From a virus (lineage: Duplodnaviria > Caudoviricetes): a DNA stretch of 64,000 bases. Positions within the stretch are counted from its first letter, which is position 1. Each line of letters opens with the position of its first letter. The stretch lies in IMG/VR virus record IMGVR_UViG_3300025129_000005. The stretch is one strand, 5' to 3'. The notes beneath the pieces were generated by a model, which was not told the origin of the DNA, did no database searches, and saw nothing but the letters and a program-made list of their open reading frames with translations. Both the position numbers and the translations under genes were made by a program. This document shows positions 245-50,975 of this stretch, piece by piece.

Positions 245-556
245 CTATGATATGTAAGCATTAAGTTCGTAAGTATTTCTGTCCGTATCTCTGTTATAAA
301 CCTGAAAATGAAGAGCTTTTCGTTGCTTTTTACCACCTTTGTATAGCGGAATGCTCAATTTAACAGTTTTACCTTTTGAAGGTTTCTTTGGTCCTGTTCC
401 TATAATATCAAATGTCTCAGAATCATCAGTCTCATATCCCATTCTTTTTGCCAAAGCAAGAGCCTCGTCAGCAGCAGAGGTATACGTGTCATGATACAAT
501 TCATAATCACTTTTGGCTTCATTAATATACTTTGTTATTTTGCTTACAATATCCAT
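245..556 (-). CDS. Hypothetical protein, putative internal head protein
   Basis: RBS (GGAG); leader MDIVSKITKYINE|A resembles I/L-x-E prohead protease site. Confidence 0.65.
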   Translation of the reverse strand: MDIVSKITKYINEAKSDYELYHDTYTSAADEALALAKRMGYETDDSETFDIIGTGPKKPSKGKTVKLSIPLYKGGKKQRKALHFQVYNRDTDRNTYELNAYIS

Positions 557-568
557 TTATTTTCTCCT

Positions 569-823
569 TTATATCATCACATAAACATATTTATTGTCAC
601 TATATTTTTCCAATGATATATCACGAGTATATCTATGACCTCTTTTATCCTCAAGGGTAATGCTATCAGAATCGGGTAAAAGGTTCTTGTCAATTAAAAT
701 GGTTTGATTTGATTGTCTCACCCCTTTTACTTTCTTTGTTCTGGATATATGACCCAATACATCGAAAACTTCTGTAGTGGATTCACATAGGTATTGCTCC
801 ACGATAGAATCAATGTTTTTCAT
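569..823 (-). CDS. Hypothetical protein with capsid-targeting-like leader
   Basis: AGGAGG RBS; MKNIDSIVEQYLCE|S; first gene after late promoter. Confidence 0.6.
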   Translation of the reverse strand: MKNIDSIVEQYLCESTTEVFDVLGHISRTKKVKGVRQSNQTILIDKNLLPDSDSITLEDKRGHRYTRDISLEKYSDNKYVYVMI

Positions 824-849
824 GTGATATTCCTCCTTTTTGATATTTG

Positions 850-857
850 TATTTATA
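850..857 (-). promoter_or_regulatory. T4-type late promoter TATAAATA
   Basis: Exact TATAAATA on minus strand 27 nt upstream of ORF start 823; same motif recurs upstream of many structural-type genes. Confidence 0.7.
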
Positions 858-863
858 ATTTTC

Positions 864-892
864 TTGACATACCACGAAGATTGACCTATACT
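864..892 (+). promoter_or_regulatory. sigma70-like early promoter
   Basis: TTGACA-N17-TATACT upstream of the 923-10681 plus-strand cluster. Confidence 0.75.
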
Positions 893-922
893 ATATTTAT
901 CGTTGGCATTTAGCGGAGAGGA

Positions 923-1201
923 TTGATTATGAAAGAAGTCACAAAAACCAAATTGAATGATTGGTCACATGGTTGGTTGTCGGTAAAACGTAAAGAACTT
1001 GATGAACTTGGTATTGCTGATGACATTACCCCCTACTCGTATCAACGTGGTCAATCTGTCTATCTCGAAGAAGATTATGATATGATTACCTACCTTCGGG
1101 CACAGGAAAGACGTGGTGTCAATGTCAACATTAAATATGGTAAAAGGTGTTATAAGAATTCCCCTGTCCGTTCCTATAAAAGCTATACAACAAGGGTATA
1201 A
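923..1201 (+). CDS. Hypothetical protein
   Basis: First ORF after early promoter, GGAG RBS; HGWL..V and YLEEDxD motifs. Confidence 0.65.
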   Translation: MIMKEVTKTKLNDWSHGWLSVKRKELDELGIADDITPYSYQRGQSVYLEEDYDMITYLRAQERRGVNVNIKYGKRCYKNSPVRSYKSYTTRV

Positions 1202-1203
1202 GT

Positions 1204-6809: not shown

Positions 6810-7382
6810 ATGAGCGAAAAAAATGAACGTGGACACGAAATGATGTATCCTATGATGCAAAGTACGCGCCATAACGGGCGTATATTGTATCTGGCAGGTG
6901 ACATAAACGAACACGTAGCGTCAGAAATAAATATCGAAATGATTAAACTTCAAAGAGAAGATCCGCTACAAGATATTACATTAATTGTGGATAGTTATGG
7001 TGGCGATTTATTCGCAGCATTCTCTATTGTTGATTGTATGGAAATGTTAACATGTGACATCAAAACCATTTGTATGGGAAAGGCAATGTCTGCTGGACAA
7101 TTTATTTTCTCAACGGGGGCAAAGGGAAAAAGATTTATGAGTAAACATGCCCGTTTGATGCTCCATAATCCTGTGGCTGGATATGAAGGATCTGTTCCTG
7201 ATATTGAAGTGGAAATTGAAGAATTACAGCGTTGTAGAGACCTATTCATCAAACATATTGGTGATAAATCAGGAAAAACTCCAGAAGAGATTAAAGATCT
7301 CATTAATAGAAACAAGTATTTAGATGCAAATGAAGCAATCGAACTCGGTTTTGCTGATGCTATTGTTAGTAGATTAAAGTGA
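6810..7382 (+). CDS. clpP: ClpP-family protease subunit
   Basis: SYGGD, GKAMSAG (catalytic Ser), MLHNP (His), EAIELGFAD; AGGAG RBS places start at 6810; triad Asp position is Asn. Confidence 0.9.
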   Translation: MSEKNERGHEMMYPMMQSTRHNGRILYLAGDINEHVASEINIEMIKLQREDPLQDITLIVDSYGGDLFAAFSIVDCMEMLTCDIKTICMGKAMSAGQFIFSTGAKGKRFMSKHARLMLHNPVAGYEGSVPDIEVEIEELQRCRDLFIKHIGDKSGKTPEEIKDLINRNKYLDANEAIELGFADAIVSRLK

Positions 7383-12387: not shown

Positions 12388-13914
12388 TTAGTTTTCTTCT
12401 CTGTCCTCTTTCTCTACCTTCTTCTTTTTTTTATTCTTGATATAATCAGGTCTATTGGTAACCATATAAACTCTAGCAGGATTAACCACTGATCCAGATC
12501 TTATCATAAAATCTTTATTGATTAGAACAGGTGTTGTTTTATGACTACGATCATTTAAATTAAACGGTACTTTTGAATAATTAACACCTTCAAATGTGAC
12601 ATTTAATTCTACAACTACCCTCTTCTCATCCAATTTTTCTTCCGAATCAGAATTATTTTTCATTCTAATTTCGTTTAATTTCGTCCCTGACATCTTTTTA
12701 CCCATAGTAGACCATGTTACCTTAGACCCTTCGACATTAACGTCTTGTGCGTCAAGTGAGGAGCTACCAGCGGCATTTCCGGTGTCAAACCGAGCATGTA
12801 ATTGACCGATACCCTCGATCTCTATGGATTCAATCACACCAATCTGCTGTGGTGGTCTATTCCAATTTATGGTATTCTTTGCATATTGCATCACCATATC
12901 AACAATATCTAATTTGGTCAGTTCCTCTATACCATCTGTACCGGGGGAAGAGTTAACCTCAAGAATATATGGGTTTCCTTCAACATCAAACATGATATCC
13001 ACGCCGCACCATTTACACTGAACTGATTTTGCAGCTTTAACTGCCAATTCTCGTATTTCCTTGGTTGGTCTATATTTACCAGTCTTTCCGCCTAGATGAA
13101 CGTTTGAACGGAAATCGTTATCAACGACCTTTCGCTTCATTGCCGCAATAACCTTGTCACCCAAAACATGAAGTCGAACATCATGGTCAGACTTAACGTA
13201 TCTCTGCAACATCATCTCAACTTCATCACCAACAGCCCATATAGCTTGAAGTGTGGACTTTAATGCTTTGTACTCATTGACAATGAATACACCTTTCCCC
13301 TGAGTACCACTTAATGTCTTAACAACAACAGGAAATCCACCGCCAACTTTTTTGTGTGCCAACTCAAGCATTTCCTCTGTAGGAACTAGCGCAGTATCAG
13401 GAACAGGAAGACCAGCTTCAACTAGCTTTAATGTTGTTAAATACTTGTCTTCACATGTTTGAATAGAAGACTTTTCGTTCAAGAAACAAAAACGATATCT
13501 CTCAAGACGTGACATAAGGTTTTGTGAATATCGATGAAACATAACACCGCGTCTGGCAATGACAAAAGTTTTATCACGATCAATCTCATGACCTTCTTTA
13601 TCACCAACGTTATAGATCTTGATAGTTCCTTCGTCGCCTTTCTCAAGATAAGCAGTGTCAGCGAATGCTGTGTAAAAAGGAACATCATTTTTGCTACACC
13701 ATTTCTCTATTTTGATGATAGTTGGGTTCTTTTTTGACATCTTTCTATTCTTGGAATCGGTAGATGATGTTAGTATAAGGATATTAAACCCTTCAACCTC
13801 ATCAATATCAACCATTTCCTCTTCGGGATCAGAGTCAATACCATCTGCTTCATGGATAACAGAATTTAACTTTAACTTTTCAAATTCTTCTTTAAGTGAC
13901 ATTTGATACCCCAT
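12388..13914 (-). CDS. RimK-family ATP-grasp ligase fused to RimK-associated aspartic-type protease domain
   Basis: DKYLT, VVKTLSGTQGKGV, DFRSNVHLGG, CGVDI, ILEVNSSPG; C-terminal ARFDTGN...LNDRSH...VLI. Confidence 0.85.
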   Translation of the reverse strand: MGYQMSLKEEFEKLKLNSVIHEADGIDSDPEEEMVDIDEVEGFNILILTSSTDSKNRKMSKKNPTIIKIEKWCSKNDVPFYTAFADTAYLEKGDEGTIKIYNVGDKEGHEIDRDKTFVIARRGVMFHRYSQNLMSRLERYRFCFLNEKSSIQTCEDKYLTTLKLVEAGLPVPDTALVPTEEMLELAHKKVGGGFPVVVKTLSGTQGKGVFIVNEYKALKSTLQAIWAVGDEVEMMLQRYVKSDHDVRLHVLGDKVIAAMKRKVVDNDFRSNVHLGGKTGKYRPTKEIRELAVKAAKSVQCKWCGVDIMFDVEGNPYILEVNSSPGTDGIEELTKLDIVDMVMQYAKNTINWNRPPQQIGVIESIEIEGIGQLHARFDTGNAAGSSSLDAQDVNVEGSKVTWSTMGKKMSGTKLNEIRMKNNSDSEEKLDEKRVVVELNVTFEGVNYSKVPFNLNDRSHKTTPVLINKDFMIRSGSVVNPARVYMVTNRPDYIKNKKKKKVEKEDREEN

Positions 13915-14144
13915 TATGAGTTACTATTTCTAATATCTTTGTCTACCTCAGCGCCCAATTTACGTAAATCGCTGATAATTCTATGAACTTTCTTTCTGAT
14001 ATTAAAATTAATTATTTCCATTTCCGATATAGTTTCTAATTGAAACTGGATATCCTCAAACATCTTATCAACATCGTTTGCGATATCTTTAGGAGTGTTA
14101 CGACCATTTAATATTTCTTTAAGATATTCTCTTATATTACTCAT
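13914..14144 (-). CDS. Hypothetical protein with capsid-targeting-like leader
   Basis: MSNIREYLKE; TAATG coupling to the RimK gene. Confidence 0.55.
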   Translation of the reverse strand: MSNIREYLKEILNGRNTPKDIANDVDKMFEDIQFQLETISEMEIINFNIRKKVHRIISDLRKLGAEVDKDIRNSNS

Positions 14145-15701: not shown

Positions 15702-16361
15702 TCACAATAACTTGGTCAATTCATCCTCAAAAAACGGGTCTATCAGGTAGTATTCTTTGCATCTCCACATAGATTCAAAAGTCCTCTGACTTAACCACGT
15801 TTTCATACCACTATCTCTGAAACCTTCAACCCTTTTCTTCCATTTTTCAAGTTTCTTACGATCATAGTCATCATCCCCATTAGTACCAGCAATATCATTA
15901 ATAAGTTCACCATTTTTATCAAAGTTTATGACACGATGTGGTGTGTTTATAAATAAATCATCAACGTCAGGGTTATATATGTATTTGTATTGACCTATTG
16001 GCATGAATATCAATCCGTAACCATAAGTATAAGTCTCGCTATAATTATGTGTTGCAAATACACCAGTATTACGAGGCATCCAACCAAATTTCTTTTTAAA
16101 TATTTTATTCAAATAATCCTGTATGTCCTGTCTCATGTTCATAGGTTTTCTATTCATACGAGGTTTTTTCTTGAATATGGCAAATTTATCTTTATCATTC
16201 TTACCCAGAGACCTAACGCCACGATAGAAATACCAATCAGTACCAAATTCACGAAGATATGGTGCGCATTTTCTTTTAAGTTCATCAGCAATCTCTTCGA
16301 CAGAATTAAATTCAACCCTTTCAGCCGAGGATTCTTCGGTTATATATCGAACTAATCTCAT
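15702..16361 (-). CDS. ADP-ribosyltransferase-like paralog A
   Basis: Leader MRLVRYITE; FYRG, GVFAT, YG and late FESMW..YY. Confidence 0.5.
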   Translation of the reverse strand: MRLVRYITEESSAERVEFNSVEEIADELKRKCAPYLREFGTDWYFYRGVRSLGKNDKDKFAIFKKKPRMNRKPMNMRQDIQDYLNKIFKKKFGWMPRNTGVFATHNYSETYTYGYGLIFMPIGQYKYIYNPDVDDLFINTPHRVINFDKNGELINDIAGTNGDDDYDRKKLEKWKKRVEGFRDSGMKTWLSQRTFESMWRCKEYYLIDPFFEDELTKLL

Positions 16362-17008
16362 TAATACCTCTCAATGCCCAGATATTTTGATAATTCATCT
16401 ATGATAACCATGTCAACATAATAGTAACCATTAGGGCAATTAAATATAACCTCTCGTGCTTGTTTATCACGCCAAGCTTTTTTTAGATTACCGCCGAAAT
16501 AACCATCAACCAAAAAATCAACATCCTTCTGTTCCAAAAAATACAAAGGATCTTTATAACGTAATCTAAGTTCAGATTCTATTTGGCTTTGTGCTATAAA
16601 AAAATCATAATGATCTTCTGAATACACAAACTTATACCCATTCACAGGAAACATTAAATATAAGTTTTTTCCGTACCCCCTAGACATACCGGGTCTTGTT
16701 GCGGTAAACACTCCCTCACTTCTGACTTTCCAACCAAATTTTTTCATGAATGATTTGTCTGCCATATCGTGGACACGTTTTCTTGTATCAACAGGTCTTC
16801 GATTCAGCCTTGGTTTTTGTTTAGAGATAAAAACGCCCCTTTCCAATTGTCGGTTAGTCCCTCTATAAAGAAACCCCCCAGTCTCTCTTATAAACAGAGA
16901 ACAATCCTTTTGTAATATTGTTAAAACATTATCAAGATCTGGATCCTCTCCACGTATTCTGGTACCTTGCTCCGTGATAAGGTCTGTTATGTACTGTTCA
17001 AATTTCAC
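16361..17008 (-). CDS. ADP-ribosyltransferase-like paralog B
   Basis: Leader MKFEQYITDLITE; LYRG, RSEGVFTAT, YG and REVIF. Confidence 0.5.
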   Translation of the reverse strand: MKFEQYITDLITEQGTRIRGEDPDLDNVLTILQKDCSLFIRETGGFLYRGTNRQLERGVFISKQKPRLNRRPVDTRKRVHDMADKSFMKKFGWKVRSEGVFTATRPGMSRGYGKNLYLMFPVNGYKFVYSEDHYDFFIAQSQIESELRLRYKDPLYFLEQKDVDFLVDGYFGGNLKKAWRDKQAREVIFNCPNGYYYVDMVIIDELSKYLGIERY

Positions 17009-17038
17009 TAAAAATACCCTCTACAATTCAACTTAATT

Positions 17039-17782
17039 TTATTGGGATGCGGCGATTTTCTCTCGTATTTTTCTGACCGCAGGTAATTCCGATTTTGCTG
17101 TATGTTTAATTCCAGTATAAAATATGGCTAACATAAGGTTGTATATTGTTCTACCCAACCATGGAACAGAAATAATAGATCCCGTGGCAAACAAACCAAT
17201 CAACATCAGCCCGTCAGGAGATCCAAAAATGTCCTCAAGACTATAAGCACCCTTCAATGCTAATGCTATATTTGTGAAATCGAAATCATAATCCAAATTA
17301 CCTATAAATGTCATCTGAGTCCACATAAAAAATAACAGCCCTGCAACAACCGATCCAGTAACTTTCTTAAGTAGAGGATACTTTTCGGCAAACTCATCAA
17401 ACTTAATCGTCCCCTGTCGTATCTTCTGATATATTTTGGTTTTGTATAATTCACTGAATATCTCAAACAATCCTTGTCTAATAAACATCGTCAGAGTATT
17501 GACAGACTTAAAAATAACTTTTAATGAAAACCCAAATGATTTAAGCAACTTGAACATATTCTTTTCACTAAAAGCATTGATTATCTCTACGGCACTTAGA
17601 CCAAAATCAAATATCATCTGATCGAGAATTTCGCCCGCCTCTTTAAACTTCCTGACAATAAACCCGACCGCCTTGTCCTTTAAATCAACAAGACCCTCGT
17701 CTACACCAAAGTAATAGTTTATTCCTTGGATGTATTGTTCATATGTAACATCAGATTCATTTATATACTGCTCAAATCTCAT
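17039..17782 (-). CDS. Hydrophobic protein with capsid-targeting-like leader
   Basis: MRFEQYINE|S; C-terminal hydrophobic helices. Confidence 0.6.
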   Translation of the reverse strand: MRFEQYINESDVTYEQYIQGINYYFGVDEGLVDLKDKAVGFIVRKFKEAGEILDQMIFDFGLSAVEIINAFSEKNMFKLLKSFGFSLKVIFKSVNTLTMFIRQGLFEIFSELYKTKIYQKIRQGTIKFDEFAEKYPLLKKVTGSVVAGLLFFMWTQMTFIGNLDYDFDFTNIALALKGAYSLEDIFGSPDGLMLIGLFATGSIISVPWLGRTIYNLMLAIFYTGIKHTAKSELPAVRKIREKIAASQ

Positions 17783-18518
17783 ATAAATATTCTCCCTGTG
17801 AAGAACTAACCATCACCGTCTTTGTTGACCACCACACTTCCTTGTTAAACGGTAATACATCACCAACCTTTCGCAAAACAAACCCATTCTTTGCCGGATC
17901 AAGGTAATCAGTACACGCCTGTAACATGTTACCATTGTAAAACTCCTTAAAAAAACGGGACACTGGCTTATTTTTATGCGGCGAGCTTAATACCTCATCC
18001 ATTTTTTCAAATTGTTTAAGTAAAGTTCCCCATTTATCAGAAGGTGATTCCTTTATATACGTTTCGAATGCAAACTTAAGATCTTCATTGAAAGTATCAA
18101 GCGAAGGACTAAAGGAATCCCATAAATCATCCTCTGGACATACACCAATATCAGTACCATCAATGGGTAGCATTATATAAGTTTTTCCTATGTGACGATC
18201 GACCCTGCTGGGGCTTGAAGCACCAATTACTGACTTACTTCTCTTTGGATATTTGTTCCATAACGACATATTATCCATCATAACAGTATAATAATTATAG
18301 GTATATCGAGAATCTCTTTTGAATCTTGATGGTTCAACAACACCATAGTCATTTGTGTAATTTTCGGAACTTCTATATAAACCACGACCCTCTGTATACA
18401 TTCTCAGTGAATTACTGCATCTCTTTTTAATGAATTCAAACGCATCTTCACGACTGATCGGCTTGGTTCGACCACTAGTTCGTTTAGAATCCTCTATTAA
18501 AAAATTTTCTAATCTCAT
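17772..18518 (-). CDS. ADP-ribosyltransferase-like paralog C
   Basis: Leader MRLENFLIE; LYRS, YPKRSKSVIGASS and KEVWW. Confidence 0.5.
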   Translation of the reverse strand: MRLENFLIEDSKRTSGRTKPISREDAFEFIKKRCSNSLRMYTEGRGLYRSSENYTNDYGVVEPSRFKRDSRYTYNYYTVMMDNMSLWNKYPKRSKSVIGASSPSRVDRHIGKTYIMLPIDGTDIGVCPEDDLWDSFSPSLDTFNEDLKFAFETYIKESPSDKWGTLLKQFEKMDEVLSSPHKNKPVSRFFKEFYNGNMLQACTDYLDPAKNGFVLRKVGDVLPFNKEVWWSTKTVMVSSSQGEYLYEI

Positions 18519-18533
18519 AGTAGCTCCTAAATA

Positions 18534-19388: not shown

Positions 19389-20222
19389 TTATTGAATATA
19401 AGCTTCCATTTTATCTTTAAAACTTGGATCATTCCATAGACTCAATTCAACTAAAATACAGTAACCATCAGTCCATACCTCTTTTCTGCGGGGAATGGCA
19501 TTACCGACCTTTTTTAATTGAAAATTTTTATCAGGTTCCATGACTGTTTTATAAAATCCAAAAAGGTCTTTGCTATCGAACCACATATCAATCAAATTAT
19601 CCGTCGGACTGTAACTTGATAAAATTTTTGACAAATCTTTTCTTATGTCACGGTCAGTATTCATTCGCCCTATTATATCATTTATCGTTGAAAGCTTTGA
19701 CCAAGATCCGTCATAGGGTCTGGCTATAGTAGGATAATTATAACTCTTTTCTTCTATATAACCCATATATGACCAAATAGTATCATCAACAAACGCATTT
19801 ATTTGACCTAAATCTTCGCCGGTACTTTTATAACTTACAGAAAATATATCATCGTAATTAACAACACCCACTGTAGACCCATCTTCTGGAAGAACAACAT
19901 AAAGTCTGTTCCCATAAGACATAGCTTTACCCATATCAGTAGAACATATAACACTTTCACTTCTTTTGGGATATCCCGAGAAAGTACCTCCATTGTCCAT
20001 GAAAAGGGTATAATAATTAAAGGTGTTTCTGGATTCTCTTTTTCTGTTCTGCTTAGGATCAATCTCCATAACAGTACCTTTACCAAGTACACCACGAAAG
20101 ATAAGATTATTTTTAAGTGATCTATTATAAGCCTTCATGCATCTTTTGGATATAATCTCAAGACCCTTATCAAGGTTAATACTTTTGCTCCTGCCTTCAT
20201 TTAAGTAATGTTCTAATTTCAT
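19389..20222 (-). CDS. ADP-ribosyltransferase-like paralog D
   Basis: Leader MKLEHYLNE; IFRG, YPKRSESVICST, SYG and KEVWT. Confidence 0.5.
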   Translation of the reverse strand: MKLEHYLNEGRSKSINLDKGLEIISKRCMKAYNRSLKNNLIFRGVLGKGTVMEIDPKQNRKRESRNTFNYYTLFMDNGGTFSGYPKRSESVICSTDMGKAMSYGNRLYVVLPEDGSTVGVVNYDDIFSVSYKSTGEDLGQINAFVDDTIWSYMGYIEEKSYNYPTIARPYDGSWSKLSTINDIIGRMNTDRDIRKDLSKILSSYSPTDNLIDMWFDSKDLFGFYKTVMEPDKNFQLKKVGNAIPRRKEVWTDGYCILVELSLWNDPSFKDKMEAYIQ

Positions 20223-20592
20223 AATGATTTCTTAAGCCTTTGTAAGAATTTCGTATCAAATGCATTATTTTCGAATGATACGATATAATATTCATAACAT
20301 TTGAACATGGCCTCATGGGATGACTCTGCTTTCCACCCATGATATTTAAAAAACAACTCATCCATGAGATCATGTAAATGTTTCGGAGTGTCTTTAGGAA
20401 CCATTTTTCGTCTCGACCTGACTTTTAGGATATAATCACTCATCTCTTTTTGTGTGCCACGATATACGGGGTTATATGGTTGTACTCCAAACTCTTTAAT
20501 GAATGGTTGACAATCCCTTTTGAGGACATCAATGATATCATCCATTTCCAGTTCGCGCTTTGTTGGTTCTTCTTCATTTTATACAGTTTCAT
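20219..20592 (-). pseudogene. Decayed ART-like paralog E
   Basis: ATG at 20592 overlaps the upstream stop (TAATG) but a 1-nt deficit shifts the leader (MKLY/NEEE); the body keeps KRDC, YRG, GWKA and E..FKC..YY but lacks about 100 central residues. Confidence 0.65.
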
Positions 20593-21278
20593 TACGACCT
20601 CGATATATAAAGAGTGCCATCTTTTATTTTTCCGGTTAAAAAATATTCCTTAATATATTTATGATAATCCACGTCGATCAAATAATATCCGCTACACTTC
20701 CATACGACTTCTATGACATAGTGGTGACCGTTGACGTTCTGATATTTTTTCAGCCCTTTATCTGTATATTTTGGTAAAAATTCCTCAATATACGATTTGC
20801 CTTTATTATACGCAAATTTATCAGACGTGTCGCCTTCTTTGTATTTTTTTATCCATTCATATGTGATAGAAAAATCAGCTATATCAATCACATCTTTGTT
20901 GTAGAGATAACTGTATGCTCCGACTGGAAAGAATAGAAACGATTTATTCCCATATTTAAGCGAATTACGATAGTCTGTTGATGTGTATACCCCCTCTGAA
21001 CGCCATTTCCACCCCCATTTTTTCTTACTCCATTCATCGAGAAAATAATGCATCAACAACTCGGAATCCTTCGGTCTTCTGTCCTGTCTTGCTGTACGAT
21101 ACATAACTGCATGTGTATTAATATTTGTCCCCCGGAAAAAACGGCTACCGGATACATTAAATTCCTTTAACCACGGAGCGCAGTCTTTCTTGATCATTTC
21201 ACAAACATCAATTAGGTCTGATACATTTTTAATATCTCTACTCTGATACCCCTCGGTCAAATAATGTTCAAGTCTCAT
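20592..21278 (-). CDS. ADP-ribosyltransferase-like paralog F
   Basis: Start reassigned to MRLEHYLTE (21278); FFRG, RSEGVYTST, YG and IEVVWKC..YY. Confidence 0.5.
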   Translation of the reverse strand: MRLEHYLTEGYQSRDIKNVSDLIDVCEMIKKDCAPWLKEFNVSGSRFFRGTNINTHAVMYRTARQDRRPKDSELLMHYFLDEWSKKKWGWKWRSEGVYTSTDYRNSLKYGNKSFLFFPVGAYSYLYNKDVIDIADFSITYEWIKKYKEGDTSDKFAYNKGKSYIEEFLPKYTDKGLKKYQNVNGHHYVIEVVWKCSGYYLIDVDYHKYIKEYFLTGKIKDGTLYISRS

Positions 21279-21921
21279 GATAAAATTTCTCCTCCAACCG
21301 TTTAAAGCCAAAATCAATCAATTTCTTAAAAAAATACGCGAACATAGGTAATAATACTATATTTATAAAAGGGTTTTTGGCATCAATTTTGAACAATGTC
21401 ATAACATCTTCGATTTCTTTGGCAATATGCCCCTTCTCTGACAGATATGCTTGTTTTTCCTTTTCTAATTCATCAATGCGATTTTGTAACTTATCGACAA
21501 TAGGTTCTACAGGAACCGGTGTGACTGATGAAGGTTCAGGACATCCATCCTCACGAACAACCATATTAAGTGGAGTATTTGGGCATTTATCATAGGTATC
21601 CGGGACATTATCACTATCACTATCACTATCTATGGGATATGGTGATGCGGCAATTGGTGGCGAAGCCGGTAATCGTGACGGTTCAACTATCATAGCTAAT
21701 GATTCATCACGATACGCACGTTGTACTTGTCTCAACTCCATTTGCTTGGTCTCGATATCTTCAACTGCGGTATCAATTAAATTGTTATTCAGCTTGATCT
21801 GTGCATAAGTAGCTTGCTCTACTTGGACATAATTGATATAGTTGGTGTATCCCCATATACCTAAAATAATGAATCCAACTATTAAGTAAATAAAAAATCT
21901 CGTCCACCTGAATTTTTCCAT
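21268..21921 (-). CDS. Membrane protein with thrombospondin type-3-like Ca-binding repeat
   Basis: Start MEKFRW after AGGAG; N- and C-terminal TM helices, coiled coils, DSDSDNVPDTYDKCPNTP...DGCP. Confidence 0.6.
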   Translation of the reverse strand: MEKFRWTRFFIYLIVGFIILGIWGYTNYINYVQVEQATYAQIKLNNNLIDTAVEDIETKQMELRQVQRAYRDESLAMIVEPSRLPASPPIAASPYPIDSDSDSDNVPDTYDKCPNTPLNMVVREDGCPEPSSVTPVPVEPIVDKLQNRIDELEKEKQAYLSEKGHIAKEIEDVMTLFKIDAKNPFINIVLLPMFAYFFKKLIDFGFKRLEEKFYHET

Positions 21922-33415: not shown

Positions 33416-33435
33416 TATTATCTCCTTGAAAATAA

Positions 33436-40563: not shown

Positions 40564-41085
40564 TCAAAAGTTTTTGGCTAACTCCTCGTTATCAGTATCA
40601 CCCATGGCATGAAGAGTGGCGATAATTTTAGTCATGTTTTTATATACATAGTCATGGTTTGATTGGAAATTATCATAAGTTGATATGGATATTCCTAGTA
40701 TATTTTGCATAATGTGTCGTGGTATAGAAGTTATACCCAGAAACGTTTTATCTATATTAACAATAAAAGAAATTATATCTTCTTTTTGAACTTTACTGAA
40801 CTGTAATTTAATATCTTTTTCCAGCTGTAATAAAGGTTCTTTATCTAAGATGTCAGCGTGTACGGAATAATCCAGTATTAATTTCATTAAATGGAGAACA
40901 CCTTTACCAGCTTTACCTAATTGCTCTTGAAATGTTTTTGATTTACGGACTTTTATGCCCATCTTTTGACCGAGTTTTTGAAGTGAAGCTAAAAACTCAT
41001 CAGAAACTTCATTAATTTCATTAGTTAGATATATAAATCCTAATATATTAAATTCACGTTCGTTTAAATATTGCTGAAATTTCAT
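40564..41085 (-). CDS. Leader-bearing hypothetical protein, paralog of 45444-46052
   Basis: MKFQQYLNE; KEDIISFIVNIDK..LGITSIPRHI vs KEQVLDFLLKLDM..LHLVSGPLHL; late promoter 41118-41125. Confidence 0.65.
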   Translation of the reverse strand: MKFQQYLNEREFNILGFIYLTNEINEVSDEFLASLQKLGQKMGIKVRKSKTFQEQLGKAGKGVLHLMKLILDYSVHADILDKEPLLQLEKDIKLQFSKVQKEDIISFIVNIDKTFLGITSIPRHIMQNILGISISTYDNFQSNHDYVYKNMTKIIATLHAMGDTDNEELAKNF

Positions 41086-41131
41086 AAAAAATTAATATCC
41101 TTAATGTAATATAAACATATTTATATATTAT

Positions 41132-41386: not shown

Positions 41387-42307
41387 TTATACCCTCTTAC
41401 GTCTACGAATATTTACGGTATCTGACGTTTTTGGAATATTATTTTTTATAAAGTCTCTCAGGTCATCCCAATTCAACATTTCATTTTCGAAATCTTTACT
41501 TGATTTCATGGGTTTACCTGACTCCTTAACGTTTATATATTTAAAGCTTTTGATTATAAAGGTCTTATCTTTGCTGTATTTTCCTATTTGTTCTATTCTT
41601 TCTCCGGGTTGTTGTATGTACTTATTTTTACCCTTCATCGTCTCTTTGGTATCACCTGTTGTCATATACACGGTGTTTTTGTTACCACCAAGAATAATAT
41701 TTATATCACCATCTATATGAGTTCCTATAATGTTATATTTATGTCTTAATATATCCGTAACTGTATTTGCGGCTCCAGAATGAGTTTTTAGCATAATATC
41801 ATAAGGAACCCTTCTTTCCCGTGTTTTATTTTGTTCCACTGCTACATAGAAGTCTGTCAGCACCCATGTTAAATGAACATCTTTTGGTTTATATCCCACT
41901 TCTAATAATTGAGGTATAATTTCAGTTATATCATTTATATCTTTCAACGTTACATCAAACATTATATTAGGTAGATTATTTTTTGATGCGCCTGCTAGAA
42001 GTAATTCAAGAGTTTCGTCTTTCCACCCTTTATCTTTTACAAATTGATGTAATCTTTTAATGTCATCTGGATTACTCCAAACTGTATTAGCAATTTCAGG
42101 ATTTTCTTTCTTTAGCTTTGATATTTTAACTGCCATTTTTTTTAATTCATCCACATCTCTGACCTTAAACTTGTTTTTTTCCATGAAATTGGACGAGGAG
42201 AATCCCTTTCCGCTCCCGGCACCTCCAGCGAGAAAAACAATTTGACCGTATGACTTTCCCCCGCCAACGATAATTTGTTTTTCTGTAATATAACTTTCAA
42301 AACGCAT
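41387..42307 (-). CDS. P-loop kinase/ATPase (zeta-toxin/AAA_33-like) with capsid-targeting-like leader
   Basis: MRFESYITE; Walker A GGAGSGKG; MFDVT; RERRVP lid; late promoter 42344-42351. Confidence 0.7.
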   Translation of the reverse strand: MRFESYITEKQIIVGGGKSYGQIVFLAGGAGSGKGFSSSNFMEKNKFKVRDVDELKKMAVKISKLKKENPEIANTVWSNPDDIKRLHQFVKDKGWKDETLELLLAGASKNNLPNIMFDVTLKDINDITEIIPQLLEVGYKPKDVHLTWVLTDFYVAVEQNKTRERRVPYDIMLKTHSGAANTVTDILRHKYNIIGTHIDGDINIILGGNKNTVYMTTGDTKETMKGKNKYIQQPGERIEQIGKYSKDKTFIIKSFKYINVKESGKPMKSSKDFENEMLNWDDLRDFIKNNIPKTSDTVNIRRRKRV

Positions 42308-42355
42308 GATAAGACCCCTAATGTTATGATTGGTATTTAATGTTATTTATAAAAA

Positions 42356-43974: not shown

Positions 43975-44060
43975 AATATTTCCTCCATATTATATTAATA
44001 TTATTTTTACCCAAAAGGGTCTTATTTTTATTTATAAAAATATGAATATATTTTTTATAA

Positions 44061-44390: not shown

Positions 44391-44624
44391 TTATCGAGGT
44401 GCTACGGTTGATACTGCGACACTACCACTTTTCACGGGTTTTGATTTACTTTTTACAGACTCTTCTGAATCATCATCATCACTTTTCTTTTTCTTTTTAT
44501 TGATGATGTTATTACGTGTCTGTAATTTAGCAACATCCCCGGTAGTTGTTCCGGTTGAAATTCCTGTAGGTGTACCAGATATTTCTTCCCCTATGTATGT
44601 ACTAATCCTTTCCAATATATCCAT
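44391..44624 (-). CDS. Small leader-bearing protein
   Basis: MDILERISTYIGE|E; low-complexity tail. Confidence 0.55.
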   Translation of the reverse strand: MDILERISTYIGEEISGTPTGISTGTTTGDVAKLQTRNNIINKKKKKSDDDDSEESVKSKSKPVKSGSVAVSTVAPR

Positions 44625-45443: not shown

Positions 45444-46052
45444 TTATATAGATTTAATTACTGACTGCAAATCATCAAGACCGAATAATCTTGCTATGCC
45501 ATGCATCAATTGCTTTAATTTATTCTTAACTTCATCGCCTGCCTCTTTTGCCGCATCTGTTAGGTTGGTTATGGCATTTTTAGCTTTAGTTAACATATCT
45601 TCACTTTTGGTTTTTATGTGTGCCCATATATGCCATCCAGTAACAGCGTCTATGAGATGTAAGGGTCCCGATACTAGATGAAGGGTTGCCATATCAAGTT
45701 TTAGAAGAAAATCCAAAACCTGTTCTTTTGTTATTTGGGTGTTGGCTAATTCTTTCATTCGAACTTTTGAATCTTCATTACCAGCAGCAGCCCGAAGTGT
45801 GTGCCAGATAAATTCTGCCATTAACTTTCCAGATTTGAGTGCGACCTGAATAAGACCGTCACCTGATTTATGTGCCCCTCCACCTATACTTTTAAGTAAG
45901 GCACCAGCCCCTTTTTTAAGGGTATTGAGATCGAATGCCTCGTTCATATTCGCGCTATCATCAAGTATCATTGATATTTCTAATACAATCTCCATGTCTC
46001 TATATTCCTCATGGGTGTATAGTCTCTGATTAATTTTGTTTAAAATATCCAT
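45444..46052 (-). CDS. Hypothetical helical protein, paralog of 40564-41085
   Basis: MDILNKI leader type; similarity noted above. Confidence 0.65.
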   Translation of the reverse strand: MDILNKINQRLYTHEEYRDMEIVLEISMILDDSANMNEAFDLNTLKKGAGALLKSIGGGAHKSGDGLIQVALKSGKLMAEFIWHTLRAAAGNEDSKVRMKELANTQITKEQVLDFLLKLDMATLHLVSGPLHLIDAVTGWHIWAHIKTKSEDMLTKAKNAITNLTDAAKEAGDEVKNKLKQLMHGIARLFGLDDLQSVIKSI

Positions 46053-46119: not shown

Positions 46120-46572
46120 TCAGATTCCTGATTTATCTTCGTACATCTTCCATTTACTTTGTTCTTTTTTGGGAATGCGCTCATACGTTTCTTCTGGGGT
46201 CAGCCATTTTATTGAGTTTTTACTGGTTAATTCGATAGTGTCCTTCCAAGGATTTACAATATAAATATCTTTTCCATTTTTATCAGCATATTCACATTCA
46301 CGCCATGTACCATTACCCATTTTACCGTCTTTAAATGTCATAGCACATACATGTTCAACTGTATCAATAACTTTAAAGAATATATCAAACCCCATATCAT
46401 CAACTCGACCTTGTATCCAGTTAACATTGGGATTAACAATAATAAATTCTGGAAATTTTTCTGTTATGATGTTGATGGATTTTTTTTCTTCTGGTTTGTC
46501 ATAAAATGCACGTGGATGTGCAAAATATATTTTACGGCGGTTAGCCTCGGTTAAATAGTTGCTAAACTTCAT
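46120..46572 (-). CDS. Nucleoside 2-deoxyribosyltransferase-like protein with capsid-targeting-like leader
   Basis: MKFSNYLTE; IYFAHP, VNPN, GNGTWRECEYA..NGKDIY. Confidence 0.55.
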   Translation of the reverse strand: MKFSNYLTEANRRKIYFAHPRAFYDKPEEKKSINIITEKFPEFIIVNPNVNWIQGRVDDMGFDIFFKVIDTVEHVCAMTFKDGKMGNGTWRECEYADKNGKDIYIVNPWKDTIELTSKNSIKWLTPEETYERIPKKEQSKWKMYEDKSGI

Positions 46573-46581: not shown

Positions 46582-47274
46582 TCATATTAGGTGTAAGTCT
46601 CCCTTATCGTCGATCCATAACGTATAGAAACTAATAGGTGGTATTTTTTCTGTTGTTATATCCAAATTGTATTTATTTATAACCTTATCTTCTATGTCCT
46701 TGGAAAGATTCTTTTCTATATCCTTCAATGCTTTAAGGTTAGGTTTGTGATCATCTATTAATCGAACACGTCTGAATTCCCCGGTTTTTATATACCTTAA
46801 CATGACATTTTTTTTAACACCATCAATCGTTTTTCCGGGCTTCCACTCATCACCTGACATTTCAACGTCAACAATCTTACCATCGATATTGACACCATTT
46901 TGAATAAACGTTTTCTTAAATTCATCCATATCATTAAATGATGCTCTTGCTGTGAGAAAAATAATCTTACTACCAGAGTCCATTTCTTTGATTTTAGCAA
47001 TCATATTTCTAATTCTGGTGAATGTTTTTGGTATAGGTATACTCGTTTCCCTAAATATCTTAGCACTACGAAATTGATGAAAGTCGTACTCTTCACCATC
47101 TTTTAATTTATAGCTATTATATTCTGTATTGGTTAACTCCCGTACAACTTTACCGTTCTTTTTTACTAATACTTTAGCAAAGGTCTTGAATATAGTTTCG
47201 TCGATATCAACAAAGGTAATACCTTTACCATAACGTTCACGTGAAAATTCATTTAAATATCTATCAAACCTCAT
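46582..47274 (-). CDS. HAD-superfamily phosphatase with capsid-targeting-like leader
   Basis: MRFDRYLNE; FVDIDETI, FLTAR, K, LIDD motifs. Confidence 0.75.
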   Translation of the reverse strand: MRFDRYLNEFSRERYGKGITFVDIDETIFKTFAKVLVKKNGKVVRELTNTEYNSYKLKDGEEYDFHQFRSAKIFRETSIPIPKTFTRIRNMIAKIKEMDSGSKIIFLTARASFNDMDEFKKTFIQNGVNIDGKIVDVEMSGDEWKPGKTIDGVKKNVMLRYIKTGEFRRVRLIDDHKPNLKALKDIEKNLSKDIEDKVINKYNLDITTEKIPPISFYTLWIDDKGDLHLI

Positions 47275-47642
47275 TTATATAACTTTCCTTTGTTTATTAA
47301 GTCGTTATATTTTTCTTTACCATAATAATTGTATAGAACCATATGTACATATTCATGACCTGTTACTTCAAAGTCTAGTAAGCTATGCACTATAATTGTT
47401 TGTCTATTATCAACACCAGAAAAGAAAAAATATCCAGTATTAATGAAATCTTTTCTTACTATTAGTCTATGCTCGGGTATTATTATCTCAAAATTAATTG
47501 GGGTATTTGACCCAAACTGTTCAATTCTTTGTTTATATAAAGGATCTCCTTTTCTAATATCCAGAGGTGTTGGATTAGATACATCACAACTCGGTATTAA
47601 TATAAAGAGTAATACACTAATTATTGATATTATATATTTCAT
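47271..47642 (-). CDS. Putative lipoprotein with HExxH motif
   Basis: Hydrophobic N-terminus ending ILIPS-C; GHEYVH. Confidence 0.5.
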   Translation of the reverse strand: MKYIISIISVLLFILIPSCDVSNPTPLDIRKGDPLYKQRIEQFGSNTPINFEIIIPEHRLIVRKDFINTGYFFFSGVDNRQTIIVHSLLDFEVTGHEYVHMVLYNYYGKEKYNDLINKGKLYK

Positions 47643-48136: not shown

Positions 48137-48224
48137 ATTATAAAATCCTCCGTTTAATATATAATGTTCATATGTATTTATAAAAACATAAATACACTTA
48201 ACTGGTAGAGTGAGGAGTTAATAT

Positions 48225-48734
48225 ATGAAATTTGGTACATTTATTTTAAACGAAAATATGATAGATAAATCCAAATCATTTTTAAAAAAAATGGATTTTT
48301 CAAAGTCAAAGAATTTCCTTAAAAATGAATTTGATAAGTTTGTGCATGCATCGATATCCAGTGGTATAGAAGAACAGGTTATATCTCTGATCAACAAAGC
48401 CTTTGGTACACATTTTCGTAATCTAAACCAACTAAAAAAAGAAAGATTGAAAGAATCGGATGAATTGATTAACGAAGACCTTGCTCATTGGTGGGATGTA
48501 GTTAAAACAGAGGCATTTCCTACCTTAGCATTTTATCCGGCATTAACGGTTTGGTTAGAGATTGATAAACTGTTCAAAATGCAGGACATGGATATAACTA
48601 AAACTATTGTGTATTCTTTGTTTTGGATATTACTTATAAGCGGTAAATACGTAAAGGGTTGGTCACAATGGAAAAAACAAAACCCTGATGAATATAATGC
48701 TGAAAGGTTACAAGGTAAAGGAGGAATAATATAA
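48225..48734 (+). CDS. Membrane-helix protein with capsid-targeting-like leader
   Basis: MKFGTFILNE; second INE|D site; two hydrophobic helices. Confidence 0.65.
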   Translation: MKFGTFILNENMIDKSKSFLKKMDFSKSKNFLKNEFDKFVHASISSGIEEQVISLINKAFGTHFRNLNQLKKERLKESDELINEDLAHWWDVVKTEAFPTLAFYPALTVWLEIDKLFKMQDMDITKTIVYSLFWILLISGKYVKGWSQWKKQNPDEYNAERLQGKGGII

Positions 48735-48923
48735 TTAGTAAAATCGGAAGGCTATTAAAACGATTGGGTTGAATATGGATGTTGACACTAAAACACTCAC
48801 AGATCCAACGATACTTTGAAACGTTGGTATGACGATACATCAAAAATGGATACAGGAATAAGAAAATTACAAGATAAACTGATTCATAGTGAAATAAAAA
48901 AATGAGGCTTATTGGAGGATAAA

Positions 48924-49304
48924 ATGGATTTATTGAATAAGATTGATATGTTTGTTGGTTATACTGTTGAGGATATCAACGAGGAAACTGAGTACCAAAA
49001 ATTTTTCAAAAAGAAGTTGAAGGCATATAATATATCTTCACCTTCTGAACTTGATGACGAAAAGAAGAAGAAATTCTTTGATGAGATTAAAAAAGAGTGG
49101 ACTTCTGGCAAAGGTGAGAAAAAAACCAACGAAGGTGAACTACCACCCGCATTGAAGAAGGCCATTGAAGCGAAAAAGAAGAAAGATGGTGATGATGGTG
49201 ATGGGGAAGAGGGTGAGTCCAAAAAACATGAAGACTCTGAGTCTGATAAAGAAGAAAAAGAGGAACACAAGAAAGGATCTAAAAAAGACAAAGCCGATAA
49301 ATAA
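48924..49304 (+). CDS. Highly charged putative prohead core/internal protein
   Basis: GGAGG RBS before MDLLNKID; DINE|E and TNE|G sites; Lys/Glu-rich. Confidence 0.55.
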   Translation: MDLLNKIDMFVGYTVEDINEETEYQKFFKKKLKAYNISSPSELDDEKKKKFFDEIKKEWTSGKGEKKTNEGELPPALKKAIEAKKKKDGDDGDGEEGESKKHEDSESDKEEKEEHKKGSKKDKADK

Positions 49305-49780
49305 TGAACAATCGTTCTATTAAGAGTCATATAACATCAGGTTGTACAAAGTATGTCCCTGTATACCCTGAGAAGTATAAAGGCAAACCACCCATTATAT
49401 GTAGATCGGGTTGGGAAGAGGTATTCTGTCGATGGGCTGATCACTCAGGAGGCATCAAATCTTGGGCGAGCGAAGAGGTTTCGATTAGATATCAAGACCC
49501 CATTCAGCCCATCAAGAATAATAAACCACATTTCAAGACCTATTGGCCTGATTATGTGATTGAGACAATACATGATGAGATATATCTTATTGAGGTCAAG
49601 CCCTTTAAGTATACAAAACCACCAACAAAAAACAAGAATAAATCTCGAAAGACAATTATGACTGAGAACAAATCTTGGTTGGTTAATCAGGCTAAATGGA
49701 AAGCAGCCGACGTATACTGTTTTAAGAAGGGCTGGATATTTAAAATAATCACGGAAAAGGAATTATTTGGGAAATTATAA
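49304..49780 (+). CDS. Head completion nuclease, T4 gp4-like
   Basis: PEKYKG...RSGWE..FCRWAD...WASEE...YWPD...EVKP...VNQAKW.AA PD-(D/E)xK pattern. Confidence 0.85.
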   Translation: MNNRSIKSHITSGCTKYVPVYPEKYKGKPPIICRSGWEEVFCRWADHSGGIKSWASEEVSIRYQDPIQPIKNNKPHFKTYWPDYVIETIHDEIYLIEVKPFKYTKPPTKNKNKSRKTIMTENKSWLVNQAKWKAADVYCFKKGWIFKIITEKELFGKL

Positions 49781-50298
49781 TGGCTATTAGGGTAATCATG
49801 AGAAAGAATTTCCAGAATGTCGCATGGCGTTCTGGTCATATCTATAAATTTAAATATCAGGCATGGTCGAATGATCCAGAACCTGTGATAATTCTAATGT
49901 ATGCGTTGAGTGGTACACATCCTAACACTGGTCATGAGTGGAGATTTTTTCAGGGAATAAATTTCACTTATATAGATAGGTCTCATCGCAGACAATTTGC
50001 AAAGTCATGGGTCAGGGAATGGGAAACTACAGGTGGAAGTTTTCAGTTCACCTATGAGAGGGTGAAGAGACAATATCCCTATCTACAGACGGCGGTTAGG
50101 AGGTATTTCTTTAGCCCTGCTTATTATATACAAAACCCTATAGAAGTGCCATTAGAGGATATAGAAAGTGTCATTGTTAGTACATGGTCTAAAGATTTTA
50201 GTAAAAAATTAAGAACCAATCTTGTTCAAAAGTTTAAAGGGGCAAAACAAAGAATTGCACAGGGGTTGGAGACAGGTATATTCAAATCAAGACGATGA
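49780..50298 (+). CDS. DNA end protector, T4 gp2-like
   Basis: GHIYKFKY...P......GINFTYI...R...YERVK...AVRRY; adjacent to gp4-like as in T4-like phages. Confidence 0.6.
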   Translation: MAIRVIMRKNFQNVAWRSGHIYKFKYQAWSNDPEPVIILMYALSGTHPNTGHEWRFFQGINFTYIDRSHRRQFAKSWVREWETTGGSFQFTYERVKRQYPYLQTAVRRYFFSPAYYIQNPIEVPLEDIESVIVSTWSKDFSKKLRTNLVQKFKGAKQRIAQGLETGIFKSRR

Positions 50299-50528
50299 AA
50301 TATGTAAAGTTAAACTTGACATTTGGGGATAAACTTAAAATGTTGTTATTTGGTTTGGTGCCAGAGGACAAACTCCCCGTCAAAGAAGTCGTCCGTGAAG
50401 ATATTGTCGAAAATGAGATTCGGCGTGTATATAATGACCATAAAGAAGTTATAAATACAAAAGATGATGAGAAATTTCATGTTCCATTTTTTGAGTTACA
50501 AGACGATGACGTGAAGAGTAATTTCTAA
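50295..50528 (+). CDS. Hypothetical protein
   Basis: ATGA overlap; VPFFEL motif. Confidence 0.6.
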   Translation: MKYVKLNLTFGDKLKMLLFGLVPEDKLPVKEVVREDIVENEIRRVYNDHKEVINTKDDEKFHVPFFELQDDDVKSNF

Positions 50529-50537
50529 GGAGTTTTT

Positions 50538-50975
50538 ATGAAAATAGATGAAGTTATAGATAGATATTTGGTGGAAATGGATATTGATAAAGTACTTAAA
50601 TCTTTGTTTGATGGTAAAACTAAAAGAAAAGCTTTAATAAAAAAATCTAGTTTTATTGATAAACTATTAGGTATTTTTGTCGATGTTAATTCAATTGATG
50701 GTGAACTTGGATTGAATGCCGACGCTATGCGAGATGTGTTAGATAGTGAAGGTTTCACTGATGAGGAAATAAAAGCCATAAGAGAAGTTGTTATTAAAGC
50801 ATCTAAGACTGTATCACGTTATATTGCGAACAAATATAAAATGAAGGTGTCAGAAATACCATCAAATTTTGGTGTTTATACTGTAGTTAATATGTCCCTT
50901 TCTGATAGTAAAATGGAGAAAGAATTTAACGATCTATTAAAGAAACAGGTATATCAAAGATTGAATAAGATATAA
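50538..50975 (+). CDS. Leader-bearing hypothetical protein
   Basis: AAGGAG RBS; MKIDEVIDRYLVE. Confidence 0.6.
   Translation: MKIDEVIDRYLVEMDIDKVLKSLFDGKTKRKALIKKSSFIDKLLGIFVDVNSIDGELGLNADAMRDVLDSEGFTDEEIKAIREVVIKASKTVSRYIANKYKMKVSEIPSNFGVYTVVNMSLSDSKMEKEFNDLLKKQVYQRLNKI

Follow-up and report, generated by a model that had tools for sequence, protein, structure and literature searches.

A short N-terminal leader resembling the T4 capsid-targeting sequence on many proteins of an uncultured T4-type jumbo myovirus

Why do many proteins of one phage begin with nearly the same nine residues? This question is raised by a 64,000-nucleotide stretch of viral DNA (IMG/VR record IMGVR_UViG_3300025129_000005, Caudoviricetes; the whole stretch is called the window here), where an original prediction pointed out an N-terminal leader of the form M(K/R)(F/L)xx(Y/F)(L/I)xE and proposed that it loads a set of enzymes into the phage head. 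We argue here that this shared N-terminus is probably, with a chance of roughly three in four, the version that this phage clade has of the capsid-targeting sequence (CTS) of phage T4.

In the proposed mechanism, a helix-prone leader of nine residues (M-[KR]-[FL]-x-x-[YF]-[LI]-x-E), or an alternative form of 12-14 residues with an MD[IL][LV]x or xID prefix, would be carried by proteins made from T4-type late promoters and would confer affinity for the gp22-type scaffolding core during prohead assembly. The gp21-type (Peptidase_S77) prohead protease would then cut the leader off after the Glu of [LI]-x-E, and the mature proteins would be retained in the head together with the DNA and, upon infection, probably pass into the host. 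The tagged set of the window would comprise a divergent array of ADP-ribosyltransferase-like (ART-like) proteins, a Zeta-toxin-type kinase-like protein, a protein of nucleoside 2-deoxyribosyltransferase (NDT) fold, a HAD-like phosphatase and several others. The core binding, the cleavage after Glu9, the late timing, the ejection and the action of the cargo in the host are steps that we infer.

The leader in the window and in relatives

The gene set consists of 97 non-overlapping called open reading frames (ORFs; 19,126 residues), where a carrier on the minus strand is named by its high coordinate, i.e., by its start. The 18 start sites named in the original prediction all exist and translate as written. 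Ten genes of the window have the N-terminus M-[KR]-[FL]-x-x-[YF]-[LI]-x-[ED]. Nine of them start with ATG and match the strict expression ^M[KR][FL]xx[YF][LI]x[ED] (16361, 17782, 18518, 20222, 21278, 41085, 42307, 46572 and 47274), and the tenth, at 17008, starts with GTG and reads VKFEQYITD, followed by LITE. From the composition, the core is expected 0.002 times at N-termini and 0.42 times anywhere, and it is found inside none of the 97 called proteins. The shared leader is thus real, as had been claimed. Its positions 7-9 are [LI]-x-E in nine of the ten strict carriers, with the tenth (17008) having Asp and then ITE-13. An eleventh carrier, 48225, had been listed among those with the standard leader; it does have the leader, with the correction that there is one extra residue (MKFGTFILNE), an insertion kept in its orthologue (MKFDNYLLNE). 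About eight further genes have longer or partial variants, and the tagged proteins of the window would, as judged from these N-termini, number about 11 to 19. The codons vary at every conserved position (AGA, AAA, CGT, AAG and AGG for K/R; TTA, TTT and CTT for F/L; GAA and GAG for E), and therefore the constraint acts on the peptide and not on the DNA. An ordinary Shine-Dalgarno box is present ahead of most tagged genes.

Under the looser requirement of [YF][LIV]xE ending by residue 16, 15 of 96 genes qualify, where 2.3 would be expected (P about 8e-9). A second prefix, ^MD[IL][LV]x[KR]I, which we call class II, is common to four genes (556, 44624, 46052 and 48924). In 556 and 44624 it runs into the class I core, as K-I-x-x-Y-I-x-E and R-I-x-x-Y-I-x-E, respectively, and thus the looser MDIxxxIxxYIxE variants that had been proposed hold for these two but not for 48924, which lacks the terminal Y-[IL]-x-E.

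The leader is also found in a 51-kb IMG/VR contig of a relative (G001), whose kinase is 66% identical to that of the window. Nine ORFs of this contig have the strict leader, with the reversed-pattern control giving 0. From the window to G001 the leaders change from MRFESYITE to MKFQNYLTE, from MRFDRYLNE to MKFDLYLTE, from MDILERISTYIGE to MDILEKIELYIGE, and at 48225 as given above. Five tagged genes of G001 have no homologue in the window, and therefore the cargo set turns over among relatives. G001 also connects the two leader classes, since one of its paralogue families has the N-terminus either MRLEKYLNE or xIDxLVEKYxT. Moreover, the domain of the window gene 245-556 is in G001 the C-terminal half of a protein starting MKFETYLNE, where an internal GYLQE/AKR (the slash marks the boundary) stands ahead of the domain and aligns with KYINE/AKS of the window; the Y-[IL]-x-E boundary therefore moves along with the domain. 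In the 46120-46572 family, Glu is at ungapped position 9 in 23 of 26 homologues, and among the three with a one-residue insertion one also has Glu (24/26 in total). In this family the x positions of the leader vary freely and the mature domain is highly conserved.

Homologues of the kinase-like protein occur in 215 phage records. In Straboviridae, i.e., in true T4-like phages, they begin with MKSFKDFVSLDE followed by ALITFGG (RB43), MKSFKDFTSLDE followed by A (leB), MKSFKQFTESTLTE followed by A (Matisse) and MKMKFSEFVQLEE followed by K (AS-sw), in each case directly ahead of the conserved core and behind cAATAAATA. The same enzyme thus carries leaders of T4 style in these phages, and in the unrelated RSP15 (Ackermannviridae) the homologue has a different N-terminus.

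Correspondence with T4 and with a cultured relative

The T4 CTS, MKTYQEFIAE (PMC8442874), is carried by IPI, IPII and IPIII and by the Alt propeptide and is removed by gp21, and the T-even internal proteins are a diverse set having only the CTS in common (PMC3012670). Amber-suppressor mutagenesis of the CTS assigned targeting mainly to residues 4 and 7 and processing to residues 8 and 10, with Asp at position 10 blocking the processing but not the targeting (PMC9026906). When the two are aligned at the cleaved Glu, positions 3, 6, 7 and 9 of the present leader fall on CTS positions 4, 7, 8 and 10 with a constant offset, which is a comparison of patterns and not a functional test. In both cases a short leader that ends in [LI]-x-E is placed on otherwise unrelated proteins, with hydrophobic or aromatic residues at the two targeting positions and with [LI] and Glu at the two processing positions. 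The likeness extends to homologues of gp20, gp21, gp22 and gp23, to the TATAAATA boxes upstream and to the ART-like cargo, as with Alt in T4. It is noted that T4 gp21 has LIE-9 near its own N-terminus (PMC9026906), and the phage's own gp21 homologue has MKKGFLITE-9 and then INE-18, with IFE-162 and ITE-183 near its C-terminus. By contrast, the present leader is one residue shorter and has another sequence, and a second, longer class exists; at least 11-19 genes are tagged in 64 kb, with more outside, whereas T4 has IPI-III and Alt; and the predicted cargo is mostly enzyme-like and not composed of small basic proteins. The CTS has been suggested as a possible general loading route of T4-like phages (PMC9026906), and the leader system is an extension of the known T4 mechanism, not a new kind of system.

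As read from its genes, the phage is an uncultured T4-type jumbo myovirus of ~216 kb with the full T4 head-assembly module. When two segments of the window were compared by megablast with 50,697 phage records, no match came up. Exact-protein look-ups (about 80-90 blocks) found window proteins identical on public contigs of 216,045, 216,276 and 217,960 bases, and by such look-ups the context beyond the window was pieced together from three loci (L016, L021 and L022), of which L016 has 0 mismatches over 9172 bases to window positions 54829-64000. The T4-type head module begins about 3.5 kb beyond the window end, with the order Portal_T4 (523 residues), a 66-residue protein, Peptidase_S77 (205 residues, the gp21 homologue, at L016 14432-15049), the T4_CASP scaffold (260 residues) and Gp23 (434 residues), i.e., with PF07230, PF03420, PF25623 and PF07068 in T4 order. 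After Gp23 come a tagged 159-residue gene (MKLLKYINE), PhoH and terminase, and farther on come gp13, gp15, tube and sheath, with two tagged genes among them (MRFVNYITE; MIDELVEKYINE). The scaffold has 16 [LI]xE, i.e., 6.15 per 100 residues, where the window proteome has 1.18 and the scaffold's own composition predicts 8.3. A complex prediction of the scaffold with the 46120-46572 protein gave 0.00 against a mark of 0.32, which is evidence neither way and is not used. The presence of the S77 protease and the head module, together with the match of the CTS positions, speaks for the portable tag ending in the gp21-type (I/L)-x-E that had been proposed, and so do the conservation of the leader at the protein level and the virion association in Atu_ph07, as discussed below.

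Experimental evidence on virions comes from Atu_ph07 (490 kb), a cultured relative with homologues of T4 gp20, gp21 (its gp204) and gp23 (Table S3). Its tandem array gp53-gp63 consists of eleven paralogues of the ART-like family of the window, ten of which begin with M[RK]WxxLxE, while gp63 begins with MRLFQLLE. The array thus resembles the window genes 15702-21278 in superfamily, in tandem arrangement, in having an equivalent leader, M[RK]WxQLxE, and in the accompanying T4 gp21 homologue, and the leader differs in being 8 residues long and in having Trp at position 3. As a DNA pattern, M[KR]WxxLxE has 13 sites in Atu_ph07, ten in the array and three dispersed (gp53-62, gp381, gp408 and gp482), with the control giving 0. 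These genes were tied to Table S5 of PMC6102473 by computed molecular weights, which are equal to two decimals: 87.07, 56.49, 29.65, 30.93, 30.16, 29.20, 31.19, 29.55, 29.96, 29.61 and 41.40 kDa for gp53-gp63, and 20.00, 30.60 and 31.68 kDa for gp381, gp408 and gp482, respectively, with one consistent accession offset. In this virion table, obtained by electrospray ionization tandem mass spectrometry, all 13 leader genes and gp63 are present, with 2-31 unique peptides each; gp53-gp63 were listed as hypothetical virion-associated proteins (Attai et al. 2018, PMC6102473). The table counts 140 proteins, versus 714 annotated features in the record. At a background near 20%, 13 of 13 is very unlikely to arise by chance, noting that the array members are not mutually independent. 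Term searches of the main text of PMC6102473 indicate that the shared leader is apparently not discussed there.

The window also has promoter-like boxes. There are 20 TATAAATA boxes in the window versus 11.8 expected, with none of 100 shuffles reaching 20, and ten of them lie 26-81 nucleotides (nt) upstream of same-strand start codons in a window that is 89% coding. We infer from T4 that the TATAAATA boxes are late promoters. As had been predicted, they stand ahead of tagged units: on the minus strand at 850..857 (26 nt before the start at 823), at 21360..21367 (81 nt before the start at 21278, heading the ART-like array), at 41118..41125 (32 nt before the start at 41085), at 42344..42351 (36 nt before the start at 42307, just past a terminator-like hairpin) and at 48175..48182 (38 nt before the start at 48136, heading the run with 47274, 46572, 46052 and 44624), and also ahead of 50538. 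They precede virion genes as well, at 44029-44036 before the virion structural protein 42409-43974 and at 57247..57254 on the plus strand, 36 nt before the gene of a presumed structural protein of 2190 residues (57291). The original prediction would be refuted if the leader were equally frequent in early genes. It is found in none of the 43 genes of the plus-strand replication or early-looking block, of which 21 are located in L022, upstream of the window; the block includes DNA polymerase, RNA ligase, ClpP-like, Metallophos and DHH-like genes. Nor is the tag general in the putative late units, where two lipoproteins, a 521-residue structural protein and others have no leader. Besides, two tagged genes past the window (L016 17427-17437 and L021 12854-12864; MKLLKYINE and MRFVNYITE) start 5 nt after ATAAATA with no Shine-Dalgarno box, and the late mRNAs of both would have no leader or hardly any.

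It is useful to compare the system with two others. In the jumbo phages phiKZ, 201phi2-1 and SPN3US, many inner-head proteins are also cut after Glu by a T4-gp21-type protease, with a presumed role of the propeptides in directing them into the prohead (PMC5694885). However, those propeptides are mostly of 80-160 residues with no common short motif, the cleavage is at [S/A/G]-x-E, i.e., with another P3 preference, and there is no recognisable gp22 scaffold, whereas the present phage has T4_CASP. In myoviruses, head-packaged ARTs have already been proposed from fusions and gene context, as MuF/portal-fusion or polyvalent ARTs (Iyer, Burroughs, Anantharaman and Aravind 2022, PMC9503650); the idea in both cases is that ARTs and nucleotide-targeting enzymes are packed into the head and delivered at infection. 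The best match of the ART-like profile, the metagenomic P0004 (2645 residues), has five copies of the domain in a polyvalent-protein-like architecture. The difference is that packaging was inferred there from fusion to structural domains, while here there are separate small genes with a tag of 9-14 residues that would be cleavable. In our literature search we found no description of the present leader form, of its use at this scale on the enzyme-like cargo of jumbo phages related to T4, or of the leader-to-virion correspondence in Atu_ph07.

Contrary evidence and other explanations

Several points weigh against reading the leader as a CTS. The Atu_ph07 stock was purified by polyethylene glycol only, so that abundant late non-virion proteins could contaminate it, and the virion table is silent on N-terminal processing or leader removal (PMC6102473). 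The capsid protein of the present phage has no clean [LI]xE at the T4-equivalent position, its only N-terminal candidates being LDE-18, or MNE-49 at that position. Among the distant relatives, which are LR756508 (484 kb), Atu_ph07, RsoM2USA and SCTP-2, LR756508 has the S77 protease but not the present leader form, and a DNA-pattern search of it gave 2 matches, neither of which is a plausible leader (MSFFVFFFE, MSFFVFIDE). The loose class beyond the strict set amounts to 6 genes versus about 2 expected, weakly above chance; the set is by itself only partly above chance, and its members would need other support. The class II members 48924 and 46052 have no terminal Glu. Finally, several strict carriers are ART-like paralogues, where the leader is a family-wide conserved N-terminus, and for these common descent alone suffices.

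One other explanation, which we consider unlikely, accepts that the leader brings proteins to the virion and holds that they are not injected effectors. They would then be assembly or core components that are degraded or left behind, or would belong to the neck, tail or baseplate compartment. This is consistent with T4, where [LI]xE is also the cleavage site in gp67, gp68 and gp22, core proteins that are for the most part expelled from the head (PMC9026906), and with tagged genes that stand beside neck and tail genes (L021 12862-13206 between terminase and gp13; the leader-bearing RsoM2USA ORF403-405), and the mass spectrometry of Atu_ph07 gives virion association only; the virion analysis of RsoM2USA was limited to 10 abundant bands. 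However, in most carriers a single leader stands ahead of a folded enzyme-like domain, which is the pattern that T4 shows in its internal proteins and in Alt and not the multi-site pattern of the scaffold, and the cargo set differs among close relatives, as accessory arms-race genes do.

Another possibility, still less probable, is that the leader has no targeting role and is shared through paralogy or recombination, being either a structural N-terminal helix or a recombination joint by which cassettes move. In its favour, the ART-like carriers are paralogues, with the leader conserved across thousands of ART-like homologues. By all-vs-all BLAST without the first 12 residues, together with alignment, 15702-16361, 16361-17008, 20592-21278 and the fragment 20219-20545 form one superfamily, which 17772-18518 and 19389-20222 join more weakly; the superfamily thus has six genes in the window, five with the leader and one leaderless fragment. 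By contrast, 17039-17782, 40564-41085, 41387-42307, 46120-46572, 46582-47274 and 48225-48734 have no BLAST match in the window, and the leader would thus be carried by at least six or seven independent families that are unrelated at the BLAST level. The original description of the carriers as unrelated proteins therefore does not hold within the ART-like group and does hold across at least six families, more than paralogy would account for. A joint at the DNA level is contradicted by the lack of codon conservation. A structural helix is contradicted by both AF2 models, where residues 1-10 form a low-confidence helix (pLDDT 53-55) outside and ahead of the confidently predicted domain. Furthermore, without a targeting role it would not be expected that the conserved positions match the functional ones of the T4 CTS and that the tagged proteins are virion-associated in Atu_ph07.

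It is very improbable that the leader is some other sorting or turnover signal, such as an N-terminal degron for a ClpP-like protease of the phage, or a signal for another cellular location. Short N-terminal motifs can serve as Clp degrons, and a ClpP-family protease is encoded in the window at 6810-7382 on the plus strand (PF00574, from a precomputed Pfam assignment on an identical public protein). But the motif ends in the gp21 rule [LI]-x-E, which is mirrored at the N-terminus of the phage's gp21, the carriers cluster behind the same box as the virion genes, and homologues are present in virions. A signal peptide was considered and rejected, as the leader is short, charged and not hydrophobic enough, and the lipoprotein signals in the same operons look quite different. 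The latter are of lipoprotein type at 44634-45434 (minus strand; ...LLVGCG) and at 47271-47642 (minus strand; ...LIPSCD), interleaved with tagged genes.

An explanation at the RNA level, in which the conserved stretch would serve translation initiation, act as a downstream box or reflect late mRNAs that are nearly leaderless, is suggested by some tagged genes that start about 5 nt past an ATAAATA box (L016 17435, L021 12862) and can practically be set aside, since synonymous codons vary freely at all conserved positions, most tagged genes have an ordinary Shine-Dalgarno box, and the class II genes and the internal YLQE/AK of G001 put the same peptide away from the start codon.

Carriers, neighbouring genes and meaning

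The ART-like carriers, all on the minus strand, comprise in family A 15702..16361 (leader MRLVRYITE, 219 residues; phrog_11975), 16361..17008 (GTG start, VKFEQYITD and then LITE-13, 215 residues) and 20592..21278 (MRLEHYLTE, 228 residues, modelled here), and in family B 17772..18518 (MRLENFLIE, 248 residues; phrog_12810) and 19389..20222 (MKLEHYLNE, 277 residues; homologues in Atu_ph07, RsoM2USA, SCTP-2 and LR756508). That genes 15702-21278 are ART-like is a reasonable lead, not established. The AF2 model of 20592-21278 has pLDDT 88.5 and pTM 0.85; its N-terminal helix, residues 2-8, is of low confidence. Foldseek with this model against the PDB gave nothing at E <= 1e-3, and in VIA-align about 25 of the top 31 rows are of ART fold (Arr, the catalytic domains of cholix toxin, diphtheria toxin and exotoxin A, DarT, CopC, OspC3, PARPs), all with Z <= 4.8, which is below the safe level. 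None of the ART Pfam families matched the ART-like window proteins. Over 82 sequences of the family, R49 (in YRG), R64, R67, R93 and E190 are invariant, and a T/S-rich strand, GVFTST, is common and not invariant. A word-index search for homologues of 20592-21278 gave 3 proteins, and an exhaustive profile search was used instead, matching 8315 clusters at 50% identity (E <= 0.001). The strict leader is present in 97 of 152 ART-like proteins, namely the 150 best hits of the profile and two homologues found earlier.

Within the array, 20219..20545 (minus strand, 108 residues) is a leaderless truncated remnant of an ART-like paralogue, which retains the YRG motif together with the N-terminal helix and C-terminal strands; the leader and the central part of the domain are gone, and MKLYKM..., in a different reading frame, may be what is left of the leader. 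A papain-like peptidase at 18534-19370 (minus strand; phrog_16701, E 6e-58; weak Peptidase_C1) also lies inside the array and is leaderless. The strict carrier 17039..17782 (minus strand, MRFEQYINE, 247 residues) has no Pfam or PHROG match.

The identities that had been given for the cargo, a Zeta-toxin-type P-loop kinase and HAD-like, NDT-fold and ART-like proteins, stand up as leads or better. The kinase-like protein at 41387..42307 (minus strand, MRFESYITE, 306 residues; phrog_5268) scores 23.7 bits against Pfam Zeta_toxin PF06414, where the cut-off is 22.3, and has the Walker A loop GGAGSGKG at residues 28-35. The protein at 46120..46572 (minus strand, MKFSNYLTE, 150 residues) has no Pfam match; its AF2 model (pLDDT 80) finds by Foldseek the NDT 2a0k (E 2.5e-4, probability 1.0, TM 0.46), with many NDT/DNPH1 rows and also TIR-domain proteins, so that an NDT/DNPH1-like fold is predicted for it. 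The HAD-like phosphatase candidate at 46582..47274 (minus strand, MRFDRYLNE, 230 residues) has the HAD motif I-type DIDET at residues 23-27, scores 18.3 bits against PF03767, below the cut-off of 27, and matches phrog_415 'polynucleotide kinase' with E 7e-6. The remaining carriers of the core leader are 40564..41085 (minus strand, MKFQQYLNE, 173 residues), directly behind its TATAAATA box, and 48225..48734 (plus strand, 169 residues), with the one-residue insertion. Pfam and PHROGs gave nothing for most carriers, nor for genes 50998-56665, and sequence searches of the PDB with three carriers found nothing meaningful.

The RimK-protease (12388-13914) and a DHH-like protein (14195-15622), which the original prediction had counted as tagged cargo, show [LI]xE triplets close to the N-terminus, lack the core motif, and were dropped. 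The former (minus strand, 508 residues) is a RimK-type ATP-grasp domain (PF08443, E 2e-41) fused to a C-terminal Zn_protease (PF05618), in the same strand run as the ART-like array and downstream of it. A second DHH-like gene, 9779-10681, is located in the early block.

The candidates with looser leaders are, on the minus strand, 18..233 (MNNINYITE, 71 residues) and 13914..14144 (MSNIREYLKE, 76 residues). Those of class II are 245..556 (minus strand, MDIVSKITKYINE followed by AKS, 103 residues) and 44391..44624 (minus strand, MDILERISTYIGE, 77 residues), with class II-type leaders at 569..823 (minus strand, MKNIDSIVEQYLCE, 84 residues), directly behind a TATAAATA box, and at 50538..50975 (plus strand, MKIDEVIDRYLVE, 145 residues), with a TATAAATA box 80 nt upstream. 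The two weak members have the class II prefix without the Y-[IL]-x-E end, namely 45444..46052 (minus strand, MDILNKI..., 202 residues) and 48924..49304 (plus strand, MDLLNKIDMFVGY, 126 residues).

Several neighbouring genes are also noted. Among 31730-36811 (minus strand) there are three tandem paralogues of about 555 residues each, with 36-41% mutual identity, and 11509-12345 and 10720-11166 (both minus strand) match their N-terminal and C-terminal parts, respectively. The 2190-residue late protein at 57291-63863 (plus strand) varies in length among samples (2178, 2190 and 2266 residues), with identical neighbours, which suggests a variable repeat or a host-recognition region. Precomputed Pfam assignments on identical public proteins give an RNA ligase (PF09414) at 1204-2226, a Tn7 TnsA-like N-terminal domain at 49304-49780 and 'Volactin' (PF25216) at 50998-52113, the start of the plus-strand late block, all three on the plus strand.

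If the leader works as the CTS does in T4, the set of proteins that are packaged and probably injected can be predicted from the genome without culture. The predicted set is much larger and more enzyme-rich than that of T4, and its ART-like, kinase-like, NDT-fold and HAD-like members would be candidates for very early host takeover or counter-defence. The existing raw mass-spectrometry data of Atu_ph07 could confirm or refute the cleavage rule. The four functionally mapped positions of the T4 CTS are conserved far beyond the T-even phages, which is of use for protein-delivery engineering in other phages. More broadly, and here we would give somewhat less than even odds, the leader is an address code readable from sequence throughout a very large group of T4-related phages, most of them uncultured, with 20 or more injected proteins per genome, fast turnover and dominance of a huge, so far undescribed ART-like family that is virion-borne in Atu_ph07. 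If this is true, sequence alone would suffice to list the 'injectome' of jumbo phages that are uncultured, and the ART-like proteins would form a major and so far unstudied class of enzymes for host takeover or anti-defence.

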